Shown here: piece by piece, positions 53,677 through 63,680 of the stretch | How positions within the stretch are numbered: the stretch's first letter is position 1 | Layout: the number at the start of each line of letters is the position of its first letter | Source: Myxococcota bacterium | Lineage (GTDB): Bacteria; Myxococcota_A; SURF-8 | DNA length: 64,000 nucleotides | Direction: 5' to 3' | Assembly: GCA_963674735.2 (NCBI GenBank) | Contig: CAXXQS010000001.1 | Location: 96,001-160,000, forward strand | Program-made: the position numbers and the translations under genes | The notes under the pieces: generated by a model | Seen by the model: the letters and a program-made list of their open reading frames with translations, nothing else | What the model was told of the DNA's origin: nothing | Databases searched by the model: none

Positions 53677-56600
53677 ATGGCGAAAACGAAAACCCAAGCG
53701 ACGAATCAAATAACAGCCACCCGATCGGGTAAGGACAAAGGCTTCGTCATCGAGAAGCCGGTCAAGCTCTTGAATAAGCAGATAGGCATTGATACGAAAA
53801 AATTCTTTGTGCATGTCGGCCAAGCGGCGGCAGCATTTATCGGTGGTGGCCCTTCAAGCTCAATACCGAAATTATTGGAAGCCGCCTCTGCTTTCAGCTT
53901 AAAGACAACACCGGAAGAACGCGCCTGGGTGTTGGTGCAACGTTCGATGGGACGCGCCCTGAAAGATCTCGTGGAAGAACAGGTCGGCGAACTTGATCTT
54001 GAACGTCTTGAACAAGCGGTGGAGATTGCCGATAAACTCGATTACGGGCTTGAAACTGAAACCGTCGAAATCGACACCCGGTTTTTCGACAATCCCGGCG
54101 CGTGCAGGTATGTCGAGATGATGCGGCCCGTTTTCGAAAGCTGGCTACTCGCCAGCGGCATGGATTCGGCTCGGGCGGAAAATACCGCACGGCGGCTGCC
54201 GTCCTTTTTTAACTCTGCGATCCATCACGAGTTGTATGAAAATGCGGGCAATTACGCCATGATCGTTGAGGCTTTCGACTCCCTCGCTTTCACGGCTGTT
54301 CAGCACGATGCAGATTGGCGGCGCTACCGGGCCAAACTGATGCGGCAAGTGGAAGAAAGCATGCTCGGCGAAGCCTTCGGCCTGAAGGATATCTTTATCG
54401 AGCTTCGGGCTTACTACAAGGAATCCGCGAAAACGAAAAACGAACCCCCATCCAAGCGACTTCTTGCACGCGATATGGACGATGAGAATGATAAGAAGGA
54501 AACGCGACATGTCGTCGATTTGCACGACCACGTTCGCTCCTGGATTGAACAAAGAAGCCAAAAGGATGCATTACGAGTCATCAGTGGTGGGCCCGGCAGC
54601 GGGAAATCTTCGTTTGCCAAAATGCTGGCGGCCGAGCTGGCGGCGGAAAATCGCCTTGTGCTATATATTCCCTTGCACAACATGAATCCTAAAAGCGACC
54701 TCGCCGATTCGGTCGGGGATTTCCTGCATGAGTATGACGACTTCAGGGAGAATCCACTCAGCGTTCCGCAAAGCGACCCGATCGTGCTGCTTTTCGATGG
54801 CTTGGATGAGCTGTCCGAGCGCGGCCGCGCCGGGTATGAGGCCGCCAAGCAATTTATCGAAAAACTGCTGGTGAAGCTGCACCAGAAAAATGATCAAAAA
54901 TGCCAGTGTCAAGCCTTGGTGCTGGGGCGGGATCTCTCGATACAGGCGCAAGATTATTTCTTGAAGAAGGAAAAGACCCTCCATTTATTACCTCTTTGGA
55001 TGACGGAGAAGGAACGTGAGACATTTGTCGATAGGAGAAAGAGACTTGAACACGACTTTCGGCTGGATTGGTGGGCGGCCTATTGCCGCTTGATGCAACA
55101 CGTTGATCCCGAAATGCCGGAATTCTTGAGGCGGGAAGAGCTGGAGGAAATCACGGCGGAACCTTTGCTCATTTACTTGGCGGCACAAACCTTTTTTGAT
55201 GAAAGAATCGATTTCACCCAAACCGTTAGTGTTAACCAGATTTACGGAGCCATGCTGGAATATGTTTGGGAGCGTGGATATGAAGGCCGTCAAGAAGGTC
55301 GGCGGCACAGAGTGATCGATGAATTTGAATTGAAACAAGAGGAATTCACGGCGATCATGCAGGAGGTGGGTGTGGCCGCCTGGCAGGGCCAGGGCCGAAA
55401 AGCCACAACCGAGGCGATCCATCAGCGTTGTGCCCCCAGCCTACAAAAAAAGTTCGAGCGCTTCGCCGATGACGCGCAGAGCGGCGTTTTGCGATTGCTC
55501 ACCGCTTTTTATCTGCGGCGCACGGCCGAGGACCGCGGCGACAACGTGATCGAATTCACGCACAAGAGCTTCGGTGAATATTTGACGGCAAGAAGGATCG
55601 TGCGGCAGTTGTACACCATGGTTGAACAATTGAAAATGCGTGAGCAAGATCAATATGGAAACAATGGTTGGGATGCGGCGGAGGCTTTGTGTAAATGGAT
55701 CGAGTTGACGGGGCCGACCGCCATGGATCGCGATCTTTACCGTTTTGTCGATCGTGAAATCGAATTGGATTATAAGCGCGATCCGGAAATGATCGAGAAT
55801 TGCCAGGAACAGATCGTCAAGTTGATGAACGTTCATCTTCGATACGGCATGCCGATGCAGGATTTGAAACCACGCCTTCCAAAATATCAGGAGGAAACGC
55901 GGCAGGCCAGAAACGCCGATGAAGCCCTGCTGGCCCTTCATTGTGCATGTGCGAAAAGAACGGGAACGTTAAGCCAAATCAAGTGGCCGGAGAAAACGAG
56001 CGCCGGTGCGTGGCTGAGTCGCTTGCAACCTCAGCGATTGGACCTAACAACCACATTAGCTTATGACTGTTTCTCGGATTTGGATTTTTCGCAGCAATGT
56101 TTTGATTTTGCCAATTTCTATAGGGCAAACATACAAAGAAGTAAATTTACTCTATGTTTTATGCTTTTTGCTTCGCTTGTAGATTGTCACGCTTTAAAGG
56201 CACATTTGGAGGTCGCAAATTTATTTGAAGCAAAAATGAAACGCGCGAATTTAAAAGGCGCGTATTTGGATGGTGCGAATATGATTCGCGCGAATTTAAG
56301 TGATGCAAAATTGAATGGTGCGAATTTAAGGGATACAAAATTGAATAGTGCGAATTTGAGAGGCGCGAATTTAAGGGATGCAAAATTGAATGGTGCGAAT
56401 TTAAGGGATGCAAAAATGGGTTACGCGGATTTGGGTTACGCGGATTTGGAAGGCGCGGATTTGGAAGGTGCGCAATTGGAAATCGCGATTTTGGAAGATG
56501 CGAATTTGAGCGATGCGAATTTGTGGGGTGCAAATTTGAGGGATGCGAATTTGAGGGACGCGAATTTGGAAGGCGCGAATTTGGTAAACGCGAATTTGGA

Positions 56601-56739
56601 ACGTGCGAATTTGGGACGCGCGGATTTGAGCGGCGCGGATTTGAGAGGCGCGAATTTGGAAGGCGCGAATTTCGAGGGTGCGAATTTGACCGGCACCATT
56701 CTGGATAAGAAGCGCAAGCCCCGAAAAAGCACCGACTAG
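53677..56739 (+). CDS. NACHT NTPase with C-terminal pentapeptide repeats
   Basis: Walker A GGPGSGKS, Walker B LLFDGLDEL, EPLL, FTHKSFGEYL; long A(N/D)LxG/D pentapeptide tail. Confidence 0.92.
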   Translation: MAKTKTQATNQITATRSGKDKGFVIEKPVKLLNKQIGIDTKKFFVHVGQAAAAFIGGGPSSSIPKLLEAASAFSLKTTPEERAWVLVQRSMGRALKDLVEEQVGELDLERLEQAVEIADKLDYGLETETVEIDTRFFDNPGACRYVEMMRPVFESWLLASGMDSARAENTARRLPSFFNSAIHHELYENAGNYAMIVEAFDSLAFTAVQHDADWRRYRAKLMRQVEESMLGEAFGLKDIFIELRAYYKESAKTKNEPPSKRLLARDMDDENDKKETRHVVDLHDHVRSWIEQRSQKDALRVISGGPGSGKSSFAKMLAAELAAENRLVLYIPLHNMNPKSDLADSVGDFLHEYDDFRENPLSVPQSDPIVLLFDGLDELSERGRAGYEAAKQFIEKLLVKLHQKNDQKCQCQALVLGRDLSIQAQDYFLKKEKTLHLLPLWMTEKERETFVDRRKRLEHDFRLDWWAAYCRLMQHVDPEMPEFLRREELEEITAEPLLIYLAAQTFFDERIDFTQTVSVNQIYGAMLEYVWERGYEGRQEGRRHRVIDEFELKQEEFTAIMQEVGVAAWQGQGRKATTEAIHQRCAPSLQKKFERFADDAQSGVLRLLTAFYLRRTAEDRGDNVIEFTHKSFGEYLTARRIVRQLYTMVEQLKMREQDQYGNNGWDAAEALCKWIELTGPTAMDRDLYRFVDREIELDYKRDPEMIENCQEQIVKLMNVHLRYGMPMQDLKPRLPKYQEETRQARNADEALLALHCACAKRTGTLSQIKWPEKTSAGAWLSRLQPQRLDLTTTLAYDCFSDLDFSQQCFDFANFYRANIQRSKFTLCFMLFASLVDCHALKAHLEVANLFEAKMKRANLKGAYLDGANMIRANLSDAKLNGANLRDTKLNSANLRGANLRDAKLNGANLRDAKMGYADLGYADLEGADLEGAQLEIAILEDANLSDANLWGANLRDANLRDANLEGANLVNANLERANLGRADLSGADLRGANLEGANFEGANLTGTILDKKRKPRKSTD
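56210..56700 (+). repeat. 15-bp periodic pentapeptide-coding repeat
   Basis: GCGAATTT(A/G) or GCGGATTTG recurring every 15 nt. Confidence 0.9.
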
Positions 56740-57808: not shown

Positions 57809-57935
57809 TGTCAAGTCGGCTTGACAGGCGACCGACAATCTTGTCGTTTACGGCAATGTTAACAAATAATCATCTCAATAAAATCAATGGCTTGCGGACT
57901 TCCCTAAAGCGTGTAAGATTGGCTTGTCTTTTGCA
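57809..57935 (+). promoter_or_regulatory. Sigma54 promoter with IHF site and two palindromic upstream activator sites
   Basis: TGTCAAG-TCGG-CTTGACA (57809-57826); CGACAA-TC-TTGTCG (57833-57846); AATCAATGGCTTG matching the IHF consensus WATCAANNNNTTR (57882-57894); TGGC-TTGTCTT-TTGCA with GG-N10-GC spacing (57920-57935). Confidence 0.75.
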
Positions 57936-57998
57936 ATCCATGTCAGACGCCAGAACTCGTGACAGAAACGGCGGGTTACTCCCGCTTCAAAGTGAGAC

Positions 57999-59135
57999 GT
58001 GATGAAGGTTATTTTACACCTCACGAAAAACTGCAATCTGCGTTGCCGCTACTGCTACGCGCCGGAAAAAGTAGACGAGCCGATGTCGCTGGAGGTGGCG
58101 CAAAAGGCCATCGATTTGGCCATCGAAACCGGCAAAACCAGCGCCTGCGTGTCGTTTTTCGGCGGCGAGCCACTGCTGCTTTTCGATCGCATGCAGGAGT
58201 TGACCGCCTATGCCGAGGCGCGCGGCGAAGAGAGCGGCACGGCCATGTACTTCCGGCTGTCCACCAACGGCACGCTGTTCACCGAAGAGAGCCTGGCTTT
58301 CTGTCGCGACCACAAAATTCTATTCGCCCTCTCGCTCGACGGCGACCGCGAGGCGCATAACGCCCAACGCGTCTTTCCCGACGGCACGGGCAGCTTCGAT
58401 GTCCTCGACGCCAAGCTGCCCATGATCCTGCATTACAACCCCTACACCGTCGTAACCAGCGTCATCACGCCGCCGACGGTGGGGCGCCTTTACGAATCGA
58501 TGGAGTATCTCTGGTCGCGCGGCCTGCGCTACGTCGTGCACCAACTCGACTATACCCATCCCGACTGGACCCCCGCGCATTTCGAGACGCTGGCGGAAAG
58601 CTACCGCAAGCTGGGTGCGTTTTACCTCGACCGCATGCGGGCGGGCGAGCGCTTTCATATGGGGCTGTTCGACGACAAGCTGAAGTCGCACACCCGCGAG
58701 CCGATCCGCTACGGGGCGATCTGCGATTTCGGGGCGAGGAAGGTCTCGGTGGCCCCCGACGGCACGATTTTCCCCTGCGTGCAGTTCGTCTCCGACCGCG
58801 ACGACGCCAAGCGTTACGCTATCGGACACGTGGAAAGCGGCTTTACGCCCCGGCGTCAGGAATTGATCACGCTCAACAAACGTCCGCGCCGTCCCTGCGA
58901 CAGTTGCGCCTTTCTGGGACGCTGCGCCAATTACTGCGGTTGCATGAGCTGGCAGTTGACCGGCCACGTGCTGGAAGTGCCGCCGATTCTATGCAGTCAT
59001 GAACGCATGCTCATCCCCATCGCCGACGAGCTGGGAACCCGCTTGTGGGAGGAGCGTAATCCGACGTTTCTAAATAAGCATTACAAGCATTTGCATCAGA
59101 TGATCGATCCGCAATCCCGGTATGCATTCGATTAA
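57999..59135 (+). CDS. Radical SAM/SPASM domain enzyme (peptide/protein maturase type)
   Basis: LHLTKNCNLRCRYCY, FFGGEPLL, STNGT, SLDG; SPASM cysteines CDFG...DGTIFPC...CDSC..GRC..YCGC...LC. Confidence 0.93.
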   Translation: MMKVILHLTKNCNLRCRYCYAPEKVDEPMSLEVAQKAIDLAIETGKTSACVSFFGGEPLLLFDRMQELTAYAEARGEESGTAMYFRLSTNGTLFTEESLAFCRDHKILFALSLDGDREAHNAQRVFPDGTGSFDVLDAKLPMILHYNPYTVVTSVITPPTVGRLYESMEYLWSRGLRYVVHQLDYTHPDWTPAHFETLAESYRKLGAFYLDRMRAGERFHMGLFDDKLKSHTREPIRYGAICDFGARKVSVAPDGTIFPCVQFVSDRDDAKRYAIGHVESGFTPRRQELITLNKRPRRPCDSCAFLGRCANYCGCMSWQLTGHVLEVPPILCSHERMLIPIADELGTRLWEERNPTFLNKHYKHLHQMIDPQSRYAFD

Positions 59136-59145
59136 GGGGGCTGCC

Positions 59146-60678
59146 ATGTCGCACACACCATTCAAAGTCAAACCCGTCAAACGCTATGGCGGGGCGCGTT
59201 ATCACTCGGAAGTCGGCACGGAGTTGACCGCGCGCGCCTGCTGGCTCTCGGCCATTGCCCCGGCCAAACTCGTGCGGGGAGCCGTGACCTTGCTTCTGGC
59301 CGCCAGTCTGGCACTGGGCGTGATGGCCTGCGGTGACGACACCACCATCCACATCAAACCCGGTGGCGGGGAGAACGTCGACGGCGATACCGACAGCGGC
59401 GAGTCGGGCGGAACGCCGCCTCCGCTGTTCTGCCTGGAAGAGGGCCTGATTTTCTGTGCCGATGAGGATAACGTGTGGTCCTGTGAAAACGGACTACCGG
59501 TGAAACGGGATTGCGACGAGGTCTGCCGGGAGGAACGCGGTTCCGAATATTACTCGATCCGGTGTGATGATGACGATCCGGAGGATCTGTGCCGCTGCAC
59601 CTACGACATTATGGAGGGCGAACCGGCGGAATGTGTGCCGGGAGACCTGCGCTGTCGCGACATATTCACTGCCGAAACGTGTTCGGACGGTTATTACGAG
59701 GCCATCAACTGCGATGTCTATTGCCAGGAGAACTACGGCTGGGAATACTATTCGATTGGCTGCGACAATGACAACCTCGACAATGCCTGTCAGTGCCAAT
59801 ATGGGATGACCGACGGCGAGGGGGTGCAATGCGAACCGGGAGACGTTCAATGTCGCAATGATAACACGGCTAAATTGTGCCCCAATTACTCTTATGTGGA
59901 GGTCGATTGCGATCTTTACTGCCAGCAAACTTACGGTTCGGATTACTACTCCATGGGCTGTGATGCCAATACTCCCGAGAACGTCTGCCTGTGCGAATAC
60001 GGTGTGACCGACGGCGAGCCGGCGGAATGTCAGCCGGGGGAGGCGTATTGTATCGATAACGACGAGATCGCCGTTTGCTCGGCGGACGACTACAGCTTCC
60101 ACCTCGAATTCTGTTCCGATTACTGCCGGACATATTACGGCAACGATTATTACTCCACCGGTTGCTATGAAAGCAACTACGACAATCCCTGCGGTTGCGA
60201 ATACGACATCGTCGACGGCGATATCGCGGAATGCTATGTCGGTGAAGAGGCCTGTGCGGCGGAGGGTGGCTTGTTGATGTGCATTCCCTATGGCGGGGAT
60301 GTGCCCGAAGGCCACGAGGGCGAAGCGGGTATGTGGGAATCCATCAGTTGCGACAGCTATTGCGTGGAGACCTACGGTGACGACTATTATTCGCCGATAG
60401 GTTGCCAGGCCGACGATCCGGACGACAACGGCGAGTTGTGCAGCTGTGAATACGGCGCGTTGGACGGTGTCGCGCCCAACGAATGCCTGCCCGACGAGGC
60501 TTATTGCGACCCCGACGACAACCTTGTGGCCTGCGACGGCGGAGAAGGCTGGGGCTATTGGGTCACCCAAAACTGCACGGACGCCTGCGCGGCGCTCGAT
60601 CCGCCGATGGTCTCCACCGGTTGCGACGCGGAAAATGCGGATAATCCCTGTTTGTGCGCCGAAGACGAGGATCGATGA
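59146..60678 (+). CDS. Cys-rich repeat lipoprotein with extended conserved leader (six 8-Cys modules); candidate radical SAM substrate
   Basis: Start ATG at 59146 (RBS AAGGGGG); leader MSHTPFKVKPVKRYGGARY...; lipobox VMAC with Cys62; six modules of roughly 65 aa or more. Confidence 0.85.
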   Translation: MSHTPFKVKPVKRYGGARYHSEVGTELTARACWLSAIAPAKLVRGAVTLLLAASLALGVMACGDDTTIHIKPGGGENVDGDTDSGESGGTPPPLFCLEEGLIFCADEDNVWSCENGLPVKRDCDEVCREERGSEYYSIRCDDDDPEDLCRCTYDIMEGEPAECVPGDLRCRDIFTAETCSDGYYEAINCDVYCQENYGWEYYSIGCDNDNLDNACQCQYGMTDGEGVQCEPGDVQCRNDNTAKLCPNYSYVEVDCDLYCQQTYGSDYYSMGCDANTPENVCLCEYGVTDGEPAECQPGEAYCIDNDEIAVCSADDYSFHLEFCSDYCRTYYGNDYYSTGCYESNYDNPCGCEYDIVDGDIAECYVGEEACAAEGGLLMCIPYGGDVPEGHEGEAGMWESISCDSYCVETYGDDYYSPIGCQADDPDDNGELCSCEYGALDGVAPNECLPDEAYCDPDDNLVACDGGEGWGYWVTQNCTDACAALDPPMVSTGCDAENADNPCLCAEDEDR

Positions 60679-60755
60679 CGGGTTCAGCCGGGACGCTCAG
60701 TGTGGATGGGTGAGCGGAGCTTGTAGACGGAGCGAAAAAGTAAAGGAACGCTGAT

Positions 60756-61745
60756 TTGTCACGCGATACATTCAAGCTGAAGCCCGTCAAACGCTATCAC
60801 GGGGCGCGTTATTATTCGGAAATGGGTCTCACGCTCCAGGCGCGCGCCTGCTGGCTGTCGACGATCGTCCCGGCCAGGCTTGCGCGGGGGGCCGTGACCT
60901 TGCTGCTGGCCGCCGGTCTGGCCTTCGGCGGTATGGGCTGTGAGGGGAAGTTAATCGAAGAAGTCGAACCGGACGGGGATCTGCCGCCCGTCAACAACGG
61001 AGTTTGCGAAGAAGGCGAAGTCCGATGCAACGATGAAACAACGGTCGGAGTCTGCCGCGATGGCCGTTTTCGGTTTCTGACCTGCAATAAATACTGCAGC
61101 AAATTCGTCAGTGATGAATATACCAGCCAAACGAATCGCTGTAGTGAAAGTGATCCGGAAAATCTGTGCAGTTGCGGTTTCGATTTCACTATCGGCGATG
61201 GAGAACCGGTTATGTGTAGGACCGGGGATATTATTTGCCACGAGGAGCAGACCATCGGAATTTGTGACAACCGCAATTTTTATCAATATACGGATTGCGG
61301 CCAATACTGCGAAGACAACTTCGGCAAAGGCTTTTGCCCCACCGTTTGCAAGGCCGACCAACCGGACAATCTCTGCGGTTGCCGCTACAACATCACCGAT
61401 GGCACGGCGCAAGAATGTGCGCCGGGATCGATCCGCTGCATGGACGATCACTATGGAAATAAAGATTGGGTGGGAATTTGCGTCGAGGGCCACTATCAGT
61501 ATCAGAAGTGCAAAAGCTATTGCATTGAAACGTTTGACCCCGGTTGGTATCCGCGCGATTGCGATGCCGACAAACCCGACGATTTTTGCGGCTGCCATCA
61601 AAAGACCGCGCCCGACGGGGATGAAGATACGGGAACGAATTTAGACGGTGACGCCGATACCGAATTGGAAGATGAGACGGATTTGGACGCGGAAGCGGGA
61701 TCCGAAGAGGATAGGGATACCCAAAGCGAAGCCGGGGAGTTATAA
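60756..61745 (+). CDS. Paralogous Cys-rich lipoprotein with the same leader (three 8-Cys modules)
   Basis: TTG start with RBS AAGGA; MSRDTFKLKPVKRYHGARY...; lipobox GMGC with Cys62; acidic DGD-containing tail. Confidence 0.85.
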   Translation: MSRDTFKLKPVKRYHGARYYSEMGLTLQARACWLSTIVPARLARGAVTLLLAAGLAFGGMGCEGKLIEEVEPDGDLPPVNNGVCEEGEVRCNDETTVGVCRDGRFRFLTCNKYCSKFVSDEYTSQTNRCSESDPENLCSCGFDFTIGDGEPVMCRTGDIICHEEQTIGICDNRNFYQYTDCGQYCEDNFGKGFCPTVCKADQPDNLCGCRYNITDGTAQECAPGSIRCMDDHYGNKDWVGICVEGHYQYQKCKSYCIETFDPGWYPRDCDADKPDDFCGCHQKTAPDGDEDTGTNLDGDADTELEDETDLDAEAGSEEDRDTQSEAGEL

Positions 61746-61787
61746 TACGCGATAAGTCGAAGCCGTGAAACCTACGCCGGGAGGTGC

Positions 61788-63680
61788 GTGATGAAACGGA
61801 TGATGATGTCGGGATTGTTGCTGCTGCTGTTGCTTGTTGTATTGGCGGCTTGCCTGGGTACCGAAGAGACGGTCAGCGGTAGCGACGGTGACGACCCCGA
61901 TGGCGATGACCCGGACGGCGACGACCCGGATGGCGACGACCCGGACGGCGACGAGCCGGATGGCCCCTGCGAAAAGAATTTCGACTGCATCCCCTCTCAA
62001 TATTGCGATTTCTGCGCGGCGTCCTCCTGTGCCAATTGCGACGACTGCCTGGCCCTGTGCGTGGATCATGGCTGCGGTACCGAGACGGAGAATACCTGCG
62101 GTCGGCCGCGCTCGGACTGTGTGGCGGGGCAGGTGTCGGTGATTCGCGACGGCTGCTGGGTCTGCGTCGACCGTGAAAGCTGCGCCTTTGTGCGTGATGC
62201 CCGCTGCGACGACGGCCTGCCGCTGCAGTGCAACAGTCCCACCCCCGAATGCGCCGCCGATGAAATCCTGGCGCATCAGCAAGGCTGCTATGTCTGCGTC
62301 AATCCCGATAACTGCGATCCGTGGAAAGAAACGGAGTGCGAAAGCGACCGCGATTGCTCGGCCGCCTACTACTGCGAAGAATGCTCCATGTCTTCCTGTC
62401 CGGACTGCGAGGACTGCATCGCCGGTTGCTGGCCGCATCTGTGTGAAACGGAATACGAGTTGCTGTGCGATATGGAGCGCCCCGCCTGCGGCGACGAAGG
62501 CGCGTCGGTGATTCGCGACGGTTGTTGGATCTGTGTGAATCGCGACAGCTGCGAACCGATCAACGGTGAGCACGATCCGAGTTGCGACGATGGCAGCGAG
62601 CCGTTATGCGACATGGTGGAACCGGTTTGCGACGGGCACGAAATCTTGGCCTACCGGAATAGCTGCTACCTCTGTGTCAATCCGGCTACCTGCGAGCCCT
62701 GGGGCGTGCCCAACTGCGCCGGCGATACGGATTGCCCGGTCGACCAATGGTGCAATGGCTGCGGATCGTCCTCCTGCCCGATCTGCGCCGATTGCGTGGC
62801 GGCCTGTGTGCCCCACGGTTGCGAAACGCAACCCGAAGCAACCTGCGATATGGCGCGCCCCGACTGCGGTGCAAGCGGTGTGGCGGTGATTCGCGACGGC
62901 TGCTGGATCTGTGTGAACCGCAGTACCTGTCAACCCACCGGCGGACACGATCCGAGCTGCGATGACGGCGCGCCGGTGACCTGCAACAGTCCGGCCCCCG
63001 AGTGCGGAACGTATGAAATTCTGGCTTATCAGGATGGCTGTCACGTCTGCGTGAATCCGGCCACCTGCAAACCCTGGGGTCAGGCGGGATGCGAGCACCA
63101 GGCCGATTGTCCGGTGGAGGATTACTGCGATCCTTGCGGCACCGCACCGTGTCCCGACTGCGATGCCTGTCTGCCCGCCTGCATGCCCCATGGTTGTCAG
63201 ACCGAGGCCGTGGCCACATGCAAAATGATGCGTCCCGATTGCGGGTTGGGAAAGGCGGCGGTGGTCAAGGACGGCTGCTGGGTTTGTGTGACCCTGGGCT
63301 CCTGTTCACCCACCCGCGACGAGCATTGCGACGACGGTACCGATCCTATTTGCAACATGGTCGAGCCCACCTGCGGCGAACATGAGATTCTGGCTTACCA
63401 GGATAACTGCTATGTCTGCGTCAATCCGCTCACCTGTAAACCCTGGGGGGAAAGCGGCTGCACGCACGACTATGATTGCGACGCGGCGCTTGCCTGTGAC
63501 GGCTGCGCGACCTCCTCCTGTCCTCTATGCGGCGATTGCGTGGCCGCTTGCGTGCCGCACGGTTGTCCCACCGAACCGGTTCCCGCCTGCTACATGATGC
63601 GTCCCGATTGCGATGCGGGCCAGGTGGCGGTGGTGCAGGATTTGTGCTGGGTCTGCGTGGACGACCAAACCTGCCAGTAA
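61788..63680 (+). CDS. Very Cys-rich repeat lipoprotein (about 4.5 units of 123-126 aa)
   Basis: Ordinary signal peptide with lipobox LAAC, (DGDDP)x4, then units of 20 Cys containing VIRDGCW.CV and EILAY...CY.CVNP.TC.PW. Confidence 0.88.
   Translation: MMKRMMMSGLLLLLLLVVLAACLGTEETVSGSDGDDPDGDDPDGDDPDGDDPDGDEPDGPCEKNFDCIPSQYCDFCAASSCANCDDCLALCVDHGCGTETENTCGRPRSDCVAGQVSVIRDGCWVCVDRESCAFVRDARCDDGLPLQCNSPTPECAADEILAHQQGCYVCVNPDNCDPWKETECESDRDCSAAYYCEECSMSSCPDCEDCIAGCWPHLCETEYELLCDMERPACGDEGASVIRDGCWICVNRDSCEPINGEHDPSCDDGSEPLCDMVEPVCDGHEILAYRNSCYLCVNPATCEPWGVPNCAGDTDCPVDQWCNGCGSSSCPICADCVAACVPHGCETQPEATCDMARPDCGASGVAVIRDGCWICVNRSTCQPTGGHDPSCDDGAPVTCNSPAPECGTYEILAYQDGCHVCVNPATCKPWGQAGCEHQADCPVEDYCDPCGTAPCPDCDACLPACMPHGCQTEAVATCKMMRPDCGLGKAAVVKDGCWVCVTLGSCSPTRDEHCDDGTDPICNMVEPTCGEHEILAYQDNCYVCVNPLTCKPWGESGCTHDYDCDAALACDGCATSSCPLCGDCVAACVPHGCPTEPVPACYMMRPDCDAGQVAVVQDLCWVCVDDQTCQ

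Follow-up and report, generated by a model that had tools for sequence, protein, structure and literature searches.

Introduction

Radical S-adenosylmethionine (SAM) enzymes of the SPASM type are mostly known for acting on short peptides, which they engage through an RRE domain. Proven protein-sized clients are, to our knowledge, few: sulfatases, QhpC and, in 2026, CrpA. The anaerobic sulfatase maturases (anSME) act on full-size exported proteins before export; in the case of QhpC, a dedicated protease takes off the leader and an ABC transporter carries the subunit out. A further pair of families, TIGR04133 (rSAM_w_lipo) and TIGR04134 (lipo_with_rSAM), couples by its model names a radical SAM gene with a lipoprotein gene and is, as far as we know, uncharacterised. 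Here we analyse a 64-kb stretch of DNA from a Myxococcota bacterium (G000:C1:96001-160000; 'the window' throughout), in which a radical SAM/SPASM gene is followed by genes for two Cys-rich proteins, clients A and B, that share an N-terminal extension, which we call the tag. We read this locus, with a probability of roughly 0.62, as a conserved two-gene cassette, its client duplicated here, whose enzyme would bind the tag and modify the client before export. An earlier note on the same DNA had proposed a system resembling those for peptides that are made on the ribosome and altered after translation (RiPPs), acting on Cys-rich lipoproteins A, B and C. The enzyme/leader pair has stood and recognition without an RRE is supported in silico, but neither the Cys-rich domain as the defining feature nor the membership of C has found support.

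Several ingredients of this reading have been described before. Leader-guided action of SPASM enzymes on protein-sized clients is known from QhpD and CrpC (anSME works without a leader), and modification followed by the lipoprotein pathway is known with MNIO enzymes. In the accessible part of one report, QhpD uses an RRE, and CrpC of Methanococcus voltae forms ranthionines on the large Cys-rich repeat protein CrpA; the adjacent CrpA and CrpB share 47 N-terminal residues and diverge afterwards (PMC13692751). PapB, in the portion of the source available, requires no more than a leader and, close by, a Cys with 0-6 residues between it and a following Asp or Glu (PMC9413430). The DAG-RiPPs are described, in the accessible text, as being modified in the cytoplasm and then exported by the Sec/lipoprotein pathway, with signal peptidase II trimming the N-terminus, and some of their clients exceed 30 kDa (PMC13056109). 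A literature search found no description of the enzyme-tag pair, which the supplementary data sets of PMC13692751 and PMC13056109 may list. Compared with what is known already, the enzyme clade, the tag, the apparent recognition without an RRE and the position of the tag ahead of a signal peptide are new here.

Results

A radical SAM/SPASM gene paired with a tag-bearing gene

Open reading frame (ORF) calls place the enzyme gene, client A, client B and protein C head to tail on the plus strand, in the order that had been noted before. The features of the enzyme and its two clients are as follows.

57999..59135, plus strand: radical SAM/SPASM enzyme, RRE-less, 378 residues; likely start ATG at 58002
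59146..60678, plus strand: client A, 510 residues with 50 Cys (9.8%); tag, hydrophobic core, GVMAC, acidic linker and six 8-Cys repeats
59158..59214, plus strand: docking motif of client A, residues 5-23; Tyr19 codon at 59200-59202
59329..59331, plus strand: Cys62 of client A in a lipobox-like pattern, putative lipidation and signal peptidase II site
60756..61745, plus strand: client B, 329 residues with 27 Cys (8.2%), TTG start; tag and three 8-Cys repeats
60768-60824, plus strand: tag residues 5-23 of client B; its Cys62 at 60939-60941

The enzyme orthologues begin at the second codon (58002) rather than at 57999. The enzyme gene ends with TAA at 59133-59135 and the next ATG lies at 59146, leaving a gap of 10 bp. 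A Pfam scan of 10 flanking ORFs found no sulfatase, peptidase, ABC exporter or MNIO, which agrees with the absence of sulfatase, protease and ABC exporter claimed before. Nor was a short Cys/Asp-rich precursor found: the genes after the enzyme encode proteins of 510 and 329 residues.

Comparative genomics shows the enzyme gene and the tag-bearing gene to be a conserved pair. We surveyed 41 related genomes for close homologues and a phylum sample of 401 genomes, with a tag threshold of E<=1e-5; the close relatives identified by name are all metagenome-assembled genomes (MAGs). Enzyme homologues of 56-68% identity occur in G001, G003, G004 (two copies), G006, G008 and G009, and one of 41% in G007. 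A tag-bearing gene lies directly downstream in all eight orthologous loci of the same order (enzymes 40-68% identical), and no other flanking gene is conserved across the eight. The tag was detected in 8 of the 401 phylum genomes, the same eight that hold the closest enzyme homologues; ten of the 14 tag genes in this sample adjoin the enzyme gene and four lie elsewhere, all four encoding 8.8-9.8% Cys. In the window's own genome the tag occurs solely in A and B, other matches being weak and covering the hydrophobic core alone. Enzyme homologues of 34-44% identity in Saprospiraceae, Krumholzibacteriia, Planctomycetota and 'Deltaproteobacteria' MAGs likewise have neighbour genes that carry the tag, and each of five whole genomes of other phyla holds exactly one tag gene, directly downstream of its single close enzyme homologue. 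The earlier expectation that homologues would be linked to leader-bearing proteins is thus borne out both within the order (8/8 loci) and in other phyla (5/5 genomes).

Linkage was also evident when the neighbourhoods were searched with a profile. Built from 18 tags and run against 11,675 six-frame ORFs of 108 enzyme-homologue loci, the profile gave 23 hits at E<0.05, seven of them outside the training set; all lay on the enzyme's strand, from -2878 to +1597 bp of the enzyme end. A strict regular expression recovered only 5 of the 108 loci, missing known positives, and was superseded by the profile searches, the second of which added L034 (E 0.023) and L127 (E 0.13) as weak candidates, both with the ORF upstream of the enzyme gene. 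In most loci enzyme and client genes are separated by 10-70 bp, distances of the translational-coupling kind.

An alternative would be that A and B are ordinary Cys-rich lipoproteins which happen to lie beside an unrelated radical SAM gene. The genome does hold 47 other matches to a similar signal and linker, described below for protein C, and several radical SAM paralogues, but the co-occurrence and adjacency across phyla, together with a tag found nowhere else in the genome, make a chance arrangement extremely improbable.

Some loci depart from the usual layout. L030, L034, L127 and L129 have their tag-bearing gene, or genes, upstream of the enzyme gene on the same strand, 1.7-2.9 kb away; in L030 there are two copies in tandem. 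In G009 the enzyme orthologue (L026, G009:C33:17300-18429) is split into overlapping ORFs covering residues 2-241 and 238-378, by a frameshift or an assembly error; a tag client follows, and two more tag clients are encoded elsewhere in that genome.

The tag as the common element of the clients

With 39% identity (E 2e-60), client B is a paralogue of client A; over the first 75 residues the identity rises to 61%, consistent with the long common leader noticed earlier. Both proteins begin with a basic, alternating, strand-like motif, F-K-V-K-P-V-K-R-Y-x-x-A-R-Y, that ends at Tyr19 and is followed by a predicted-helical segment, a hydrophobic core and a lipobox-like G-V-M-A-C (A) or G-G-M-G-C (B) ending at Cys62. 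Beyond Cys62 come an acidic linker and 8-Cys repeats, each of ~66 residues. Among residues 1-45 there are 8-9 Lys and Arg versus 2 Asp and Glu, a bias that would fit a cytoplasmic N-region under the positive-inside rule. A lipobox, [LVI][ASTVI][GAS]C, closes a signal peptide and as a rule lies no further in than residue ~35; V-M-A-C of A and G-M-G-C of B fit a looser PROSITE-like pattern, with the Cys at residue 62. The Cys at this column is invariant in 12 Cys-rich clients. This lipobox-like pattern makes signal peptidase II a putative leader peptidase of A and B. Export by the Tat pathway was rejected, since no RR-x-hydrophobic-hydrophobic motif occurs in the first 60 residues of either protein.

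To place the tag in a wider context, a global profile search covered 1.84 billion proteins, with representatives clustered at 50% identity. It returned 120 representative tag clusters at E<=1e-3, 41 of them at E<=1e-10, indicating a rare and distinct family spread over several phyla. For 117 of the 120 the match begins at residue 10 or earlier. The most constant column is Tyr19 (119 of 120; also invariant in the 18 clients aligned), followed by Pro10 and Pro20 (101 each), Val8 (100) and Ser21 (96); column 24 is Asp or Glu in 90 and column 36 aromatic in 108. Most tag proteins have a Pro-rich stretch from the tag to this second aromatic position, and in most of the family conservation extends over ~40 residues. 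A Cys at the lipobox column, by contrast, is present in only 54 of the 120 representatives. Neither Pfam nor NCBIfam has a model for the tag itself.

Cys content varies widely among the clients. Fourteen of the 120 clusters are Cys-rich, all of the window's type, while 21 contain no Cys and 33 exactly one. Within the window's order, 12 of 14 tag genes encode Cys-rich proteins (8-10% Cys) and two do not; two clients of this order are acidic, Tyr-rich and nearly Cys-free, and those of L025 (enzyme 55% identical) and L027 (40% identical) hold 1-2 Cys. At the level of sequence, then, the tag is the sole element common to all clients, and what A and B carry as 8-Cys repeats is lineage-specific cargo rather than the defining part of the system, since so few clusters are Cys-rich and 21 lack Cys altogether. 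The proposal that a Cys-rich mature domain defines the substrate is, for the same reason, not supported.

The mature parts themselves gave few matches. An AlphaFold2 model of B shows the repeats at pLDDT (predicted local distance difference test) 82-91 and the stretch after residue 23 as helical. A Foldseek search of the 8-Cys repeat fold against the PDB gave no match at E<=1e-3, and the ESM Atlas returned only unnamed Myxococcota clusters at 0.80-0.83, under the level that counts. No Pfam or NCBIfam family was found for A, B, C or 10 other clients. Non-Cys-rich clients (L031, L032, L033, L035, L036, L037, L040, L123 and L125), which come from several phyla, have in common a different mature domain with an Asp-Gly-Tyr-type motif, which no Pfam or NCBIfam model matches; the Saprospiraceae-type client proteins also share a conserved C-terminus.

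An enzyme of the thioether-synthase-like branch

The enzyme carries the cluster motif CxxxCxxC at residues 12-19 (Cys12/16/19) and the seven-Cys SPASM motif (C242...G-x4-C260, C300-x2-C303-x5-C309-x3-C313, C332), which place it among the SPASM members of the radical SAM superfamily. Its catalytic and cluster motifs are intact and invariant in eight orthologues. Pfam Radical_SAM matches with 58.2 bits (cut-off 29.5) and Fer4_12 is also reported, whereas the Pfam SPASM model gave no report at E<=0.01. Because only 11 residues precede the cluster motif, there is no N-terminal domain and no fused RRE, as had been recognised before.

Seventy-four NCBIfam families match the enzyme. The best is the PapB ranthipeptide maturase (NF047865), with 204.4 bits over residues 4-324 and below its cut-off of 340. 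It is followed by QhpD (TIGR03906; 136.3 bits, cut-off 453, aligned over residues 3-362), the SCIFF maturase (130.4 bits, cut-off 425), anSME (TIGR03942; 79.8 bits, cut-off 349.45), the CrpC family TIGR04463 (53 bits, cut-off 525) and TIGR04133 (30.1 bits at the enzyme gene, cut-off 425). Cyclophane-forming families (HxsB 94.5, YhhB 74.4, FxsB 58 and AmcB 54.6 bits) match the N-terminal half only. Among solved structures, a PDB search found CteB (5wgg, E 1.4e-33) as the nearest, then anSME (E 6e-16). Judged by these matches, the enzyme is a member of a thioether-synthase-like SPASM branch, nearest to PapB, CteB and QhpD and outside every curated family among the best 25 matches listed. Membership in the anSME, TIGR04133/TIGR04134, TIGR04463, QhpD and PapB families was rejected, all scores lying under the cut-offs; for anSME and TIGR04133 this accords with the system proposed earlier, which would have been undermined by a sulfatase maturase.

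An extra Cys (C313-x-C315), two residues past CX2CX5CX3C, is invariant in the enzyme clade and absent from CteB and from a Paenibacillus homologue (L076). Of the homologues in which the motif was found (L020-L142), all 20 that are tag-associated have it, as do 37 of the other 56. The extra Cys may complete the ligation of an auxiliary cluster; in CteB this cluster site binds the substrate Cys, and the extra Cys of the present clade could fill it. The Paenibacillus homologue has ~100 additional N-terminal residues and a short Cys/Asp-rich ORF upstream, suggesting a PapA/PapB locus.

Other relatives of the enzyme were seen in passing. The window's genome holds several radical SAM paralogues, among them a tandem pair of radical SAM/SPASM-like genes (G000:C1:2646999-2649263) whose products match the enzyme's N-terminal part at 37% and 30% identity. 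Distant homologues in L047, L060 and L064 (26-33% identity) precede Cys-free proteins of ~125-165 residues, those of L060 and L064 with a Pro-Gly-Gly-type motif in the visible part, and distant homologues in Fibrobacter (L046-L065) precede Lys-rich proteins of ~100 residues; these neighbours probably belong to separate RiPP-like systems.

Predicted docking of the tag on the enzyme

To see how the two partners might meet, a complex was modelled from the enzyme (alignment of 8), residues 1-75 of client A (alignment of 18), SAM and three 4Fe-4S clusters. The interface score ipSAE was 0.02, 0.85 and 0.87 in three runs (median 0.85), compared with 0.00 for the best of three controls. The mark applied is reached by 58 of 80 solved complexes and by 2 of 110 mismatched pairs, a calibration that is only rough here because of the custom alignments and the ligands riding along. 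The runs agree in at least 2% of contacts, and the pLDDT of the partner is at least 26.

In the model, client residues 5-23 contact enzyme residues 190-195, 231-235, 299-305, 327-336, 340-351 and 362-365. Residues 8-11 of the client pack on the SPASM CxxC strand, and Tyr19 rests on the C-terminal helix (343-350). These in silico results support docking of the tag on the SPASM/C-terminal region, that is, a leader-type recognition independent of an RRE, much as had been suspected for the shared N-terminus. Recognition would seem to run through SPASM and C-terminal elements rather than an RRE, with a tag that precedes a Sec or lipoprotein signal.

Binding need not entail modification. One conceivable role of the tag is to hold the enzyme at the membrane, another is to control the enzyme or the client's export; alternatively, the enzyme might have its true substrate elsewhere. 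The active site, in which the model places no client residue, and the lack of a common acceptor site in the mature domains would fit such readings. The catalytic motifs are nevertheless all intact and invariant in the eight orthologues, the tight 1:1 adjacency, with its short gaps in most loci, is typical of enzyme-substrate pairs in this superfamily, and no other candidate substrate gene is conserved nearby. We therefore regard binding without modification as improbable.

Proposed modification of the client before export

Under the two-gene cassette reading, events would unfold as follows. A cytoplasmic, RRE-less radical SAM/SPASM enzyme of the thioether-synthase-like branch would recognise a basic, strand-like motif of ~20 residues, closed by an invariant Tyr, which occupies the very N-terminal end of the client ahead of the hydrophobic core. 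It would grip the tag, as modelled, through its SPASM domain and C-terminal helix, and would modify the client prior to export. In A and B, the lipoprotein pathway would then remove the tag at the lipobox-like Cys62. If confirmed, such modification would link radical chemistry to the general export pathways, define a new class of modified envelope proteins or of modified signal peptides, and provide a compact, portable tag for engineering.

Several observations weigh against this reading. Twenty-seven further phylum genomes have enzyme homologues of 31-42% identity and no tag at the threshold used. Inspection of 20 such loci yielded a tag-like ORF by profile in two (L125 and L129) and weakly in one (L127), and by eye in two more (L134, and L123 with Phe for Tyr); none was found in the other 15, with the caveat that several of the contigs are short and ORF calling is noisy at this G+C. 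One of the three complex runs stayed at 0.02, and the partner's own fold is uncertain. No client residue reaches the SAM cluster or active site, so that the model does not show a substrate or a site of chemistry. The interface residues W190, D343, L349, F357 and Y362 are kept in homologues without a detected tag too; interface residues were accordingly dropped as a marker of tag-associated enzymes, most of them failing to discriminate. None of the best 25 NCBIfam matches listed reaches its curated cut-off, so homology does not allow a known chemistry to be assigned to the enzyme. From one lineage to another the clients have unrelated mature domains, which hence offer no common modification site outside the tag, and modifying a tag that is later cleaved off makes little obvious biological sense.

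If modification occurs, two outcomes appear about equally likely: Cys-to-Asp/Glu thioethers (ranthionines) in the Cys-rich acidic mature part, or a cross-link in or right after the tag, around Tyr19-x-Ser21-x2-Asp/Glu.

The first outcome, a sub-case of the cassette reading, would have many thioethers of the PapB/QhpD/CrpC type installed in the repeats of A, B and perhaps C, and a multiply modified lipoprotein exported. We hold it to be possible, if tentative. The best matches of the enzyme are to thioether synthases (PapB, QhpD and CteB), and 12 of the 14 tag genes of the window's order are rich in Cys, including the four that are unlinked to the enzyme gene. The minimal needs of PapB, as given in the accessible part of the source (PMC9413430), and the CrpC/CrpA ranthionine precedent, as far as the available text describes it (PMC13692751), point the same way. 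The clients of L025 and L027, with their 1-2 Cys, and the 21 Cys-free clusters do not fit. Further, the PapB motif C-x3-[D/E] is not enriched in the mature parts (15 found versus 11.5 expected in A, 3 versus 5.8 in B), nor in C, which moreover lacks the tag. The 8-Cys repeats model as a compact fold, as expected of disulfide-rich periplasmic modules, and the enzyme has the extra invariant Cys that is missing in CteB and the Paenibacillus PapB-like homologue. Heavily cross-linked chains are, in addition, poor substrates for Sec. An acidic residue after the lipobox Cys was considered as a specific Cys-Xn-Asp site and rejected, DGD linkers after the lipobox being generic in this genome.

The second outcome would make the tag itself the substrate, with a cross-link at or next to the invariant Tyr, such as a Tyr-x-Ser cyclophane or a link from Tyr to Asp or Glu. 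The modified signal-peptide region could then act as an export checkpoint, persist as a permanent cytoplasmic tail in clients that lack a lipobox, or be released as a peptide. Three features speak for this view, which we consider possible but doubtful: the extension, with its near-invariant Tyr19, is the only part conserved in all lineages; its ~40 conserved residues exceed the 19 that dock in the complex model; and the lipobox Cys in only 54 of 120 representatives implies that many clients may retain the extension. SPASM enzymes that cross-link Tyr are known, namely PqqE, RrrB and the triceptide synthases. Set against this, Tyr19 is modelled on the C-terminal helix, away from the SAM cluster; the cyclophane families score lower and cover the N-terminal half of the enzyme alone; the extension of A and B should be cut off at Cys62; and the stretch past residue 23 varies by lineage, being predicted as helical in B and Pro-rich in most others. 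The sharper proposal that the enzyme spares the mature lipoprotein and covalently modifies the extended signal-peptide region at or beside Tyr19-x-Ser21...Asp/Glu strikes us as rather unlikely. Were it true, it would define a family of modified signal peptides or anchors that could gate Sec or lipoprotein export, stay as a cytoplasmic tail in clients lacking a lipobox or be released as a signal-peptide-derived RiPP.

Comparison with described systems

Set beside the described systems, the proposed cassette combines features of several. QhpD and QhpC provide a close analogy: a radical SAM/SPASM enzyme cross-links a leader-bearing subunit in the cytoplasm, the subunit ends up in the periplasm, and the QhpD model aligns with nearly the whole of the present enzyme, including the C-terminal helix region on which the tag docks in the complex model. 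However, QhpD has an RRE and the present enzyme has none, its score lies under the QhpD cut-off, and the present clients have a signal peptide and a lipobox-like site, with neither a protease nor an ABC gene in the 10 flanking ORFs. The Crp system resembles this locus in joining a SPASM enzyme to large Cys-rich repeat clients with a shared N-terminus, as in A and B; it differs, in the accessible part of the source, in that CrpC has an RRE and the archaeal clients are not described there as signal-peptide/lipobox proteins (PMC13692751). The present tag also occurs on Cys-free clients, and the TIGR04463 score is low.

PapB and CteB are the best family and structure matches, and leader-guided action that tolerates varied cores is a further likeness, going by the available portion of PMC9413430. 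The present enzyme, though, lacks the ~100-residue N-terminal RRE, has the extra Cys, and comes without a short Cys/Asp-rich precursor. With the DAG-RiPPs and bufferin-type systems, as presented in the accessible text, the locus shares the logic of modifying first and then exporting through the lipoprotein pathway; an MNIO (DUF692) and a partner protein operate there and a radical SAM enzyme here, and that text describes no separate ~40-residue extension ahead of the signal peptide (PMC13056109). The terms 'radical SAM', 'rSAM' and 'SPASM' have 0 occurrences in the main text of PMC13056109.

Two further likenesses can be named. TIGR04133 and TIGR04134 also pair a radical SAM gene with a lipoprotein gene, but the enzyme scores far below the former, and the latter (cut-off 39.8 bits) matches none of A, B and C, its sole hit in the genome lying elsewhere (E 0.99). 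anSME resembles the present enzyme in size and architecture, with an N-terminal cluster motif and without an RRE; it differs in its low score, in the missing sulfatase among the 10 flanking ORFs, and in that neither A nor B contains a sulfatase-type C/S-x-P/A-x-R motif.

A predicted sigma54 promoter

Two elements precede the enzyme gene.

57809..57826, plus strand: perfect inverted repeat TGTCAA-N6-TTGACA, candidate enhancer-binding-protein site
57920..57935, plus strand: sigma54-type -24/-12 motif TGGCTTGTCTTTTGCA

The motif TGGCTTGTCTTTTGCA fits sigma54 -24/-12 spacing, with GG and GC elements as in TGGCAC-N5-TTGCW, and is the sole match to TGGC-N7-TTGCA on both strands of the window; shuffled sequences gave a mean of 1.29. 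As one chance match is expected, the case for the motif rests on where it lies and on its conservation: six of nine loci carry one like it 58-82 bp ahead of the enzyme gene, and a seventh has one 278 bp upstream, which supports the promoter predicted before. The inverted repeat, ~95 bp upstream of the motif, is also the sole match in the window (shuffle mean 0.03), and the window, L020, L021 and, imperfectly, L023 all have a repeat of this kind 170-199 bp ahead of the enzyme gene. It may be the site of an enhancer-binding protein, and expression of the locus is probably sigma54-dependent.

Protein C and other neighbours

One further gene completes the run on the plus strand.

61788..63680, plus strand: lipoprotein C, 630 residues with 95 Cys (15.1%); same-strand neighbour

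Protein C shows no relation to A (best E 0.084), its lipoprotein signal is of the ordinary short kind and lacks the tag extension, and neither C nor the upstream CysK gene is syntenic in the eight orthologous loci. C was therefore rejected as a member of the system, contrary to what had been supposed, and so was CysK for its lack of synteny. The Cys-rich repeats of C have no paralogue in the genome at E<=1e-5. A 260-residue lipoprotein with 37 Cys, a short ordinary signal and no tag follows a 33%-identity enzyme homologue in a Myxococcales MAG (L039:9201-9983); it bears no true resemblance to C.

Over 61788-61970, C has a signal peptide and an Asp-Gly-Asp-rich linker that recur in 47 other ORFs of G000. 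These matches go no further than residues ~2-126 of C, taking in the signal peptide, the linker and a brief run after it, and the N-terminal part of C is a genome-wide lipoprotein module; a 15-bp tandem repeat lies inside it at 61884-61964.

Farther upstream, at 53677-56739 on the plus strand, the window encodes a 1020-residue protein that combines an NNH3 helical domain and a NACHT NTPase with a long run of pentapeptide repeats at the C-terminus. Over these repeats the G+C dips, to 0.41 at 56000-56499, and the protein as a whole looks like one of the STAND/NLR type.

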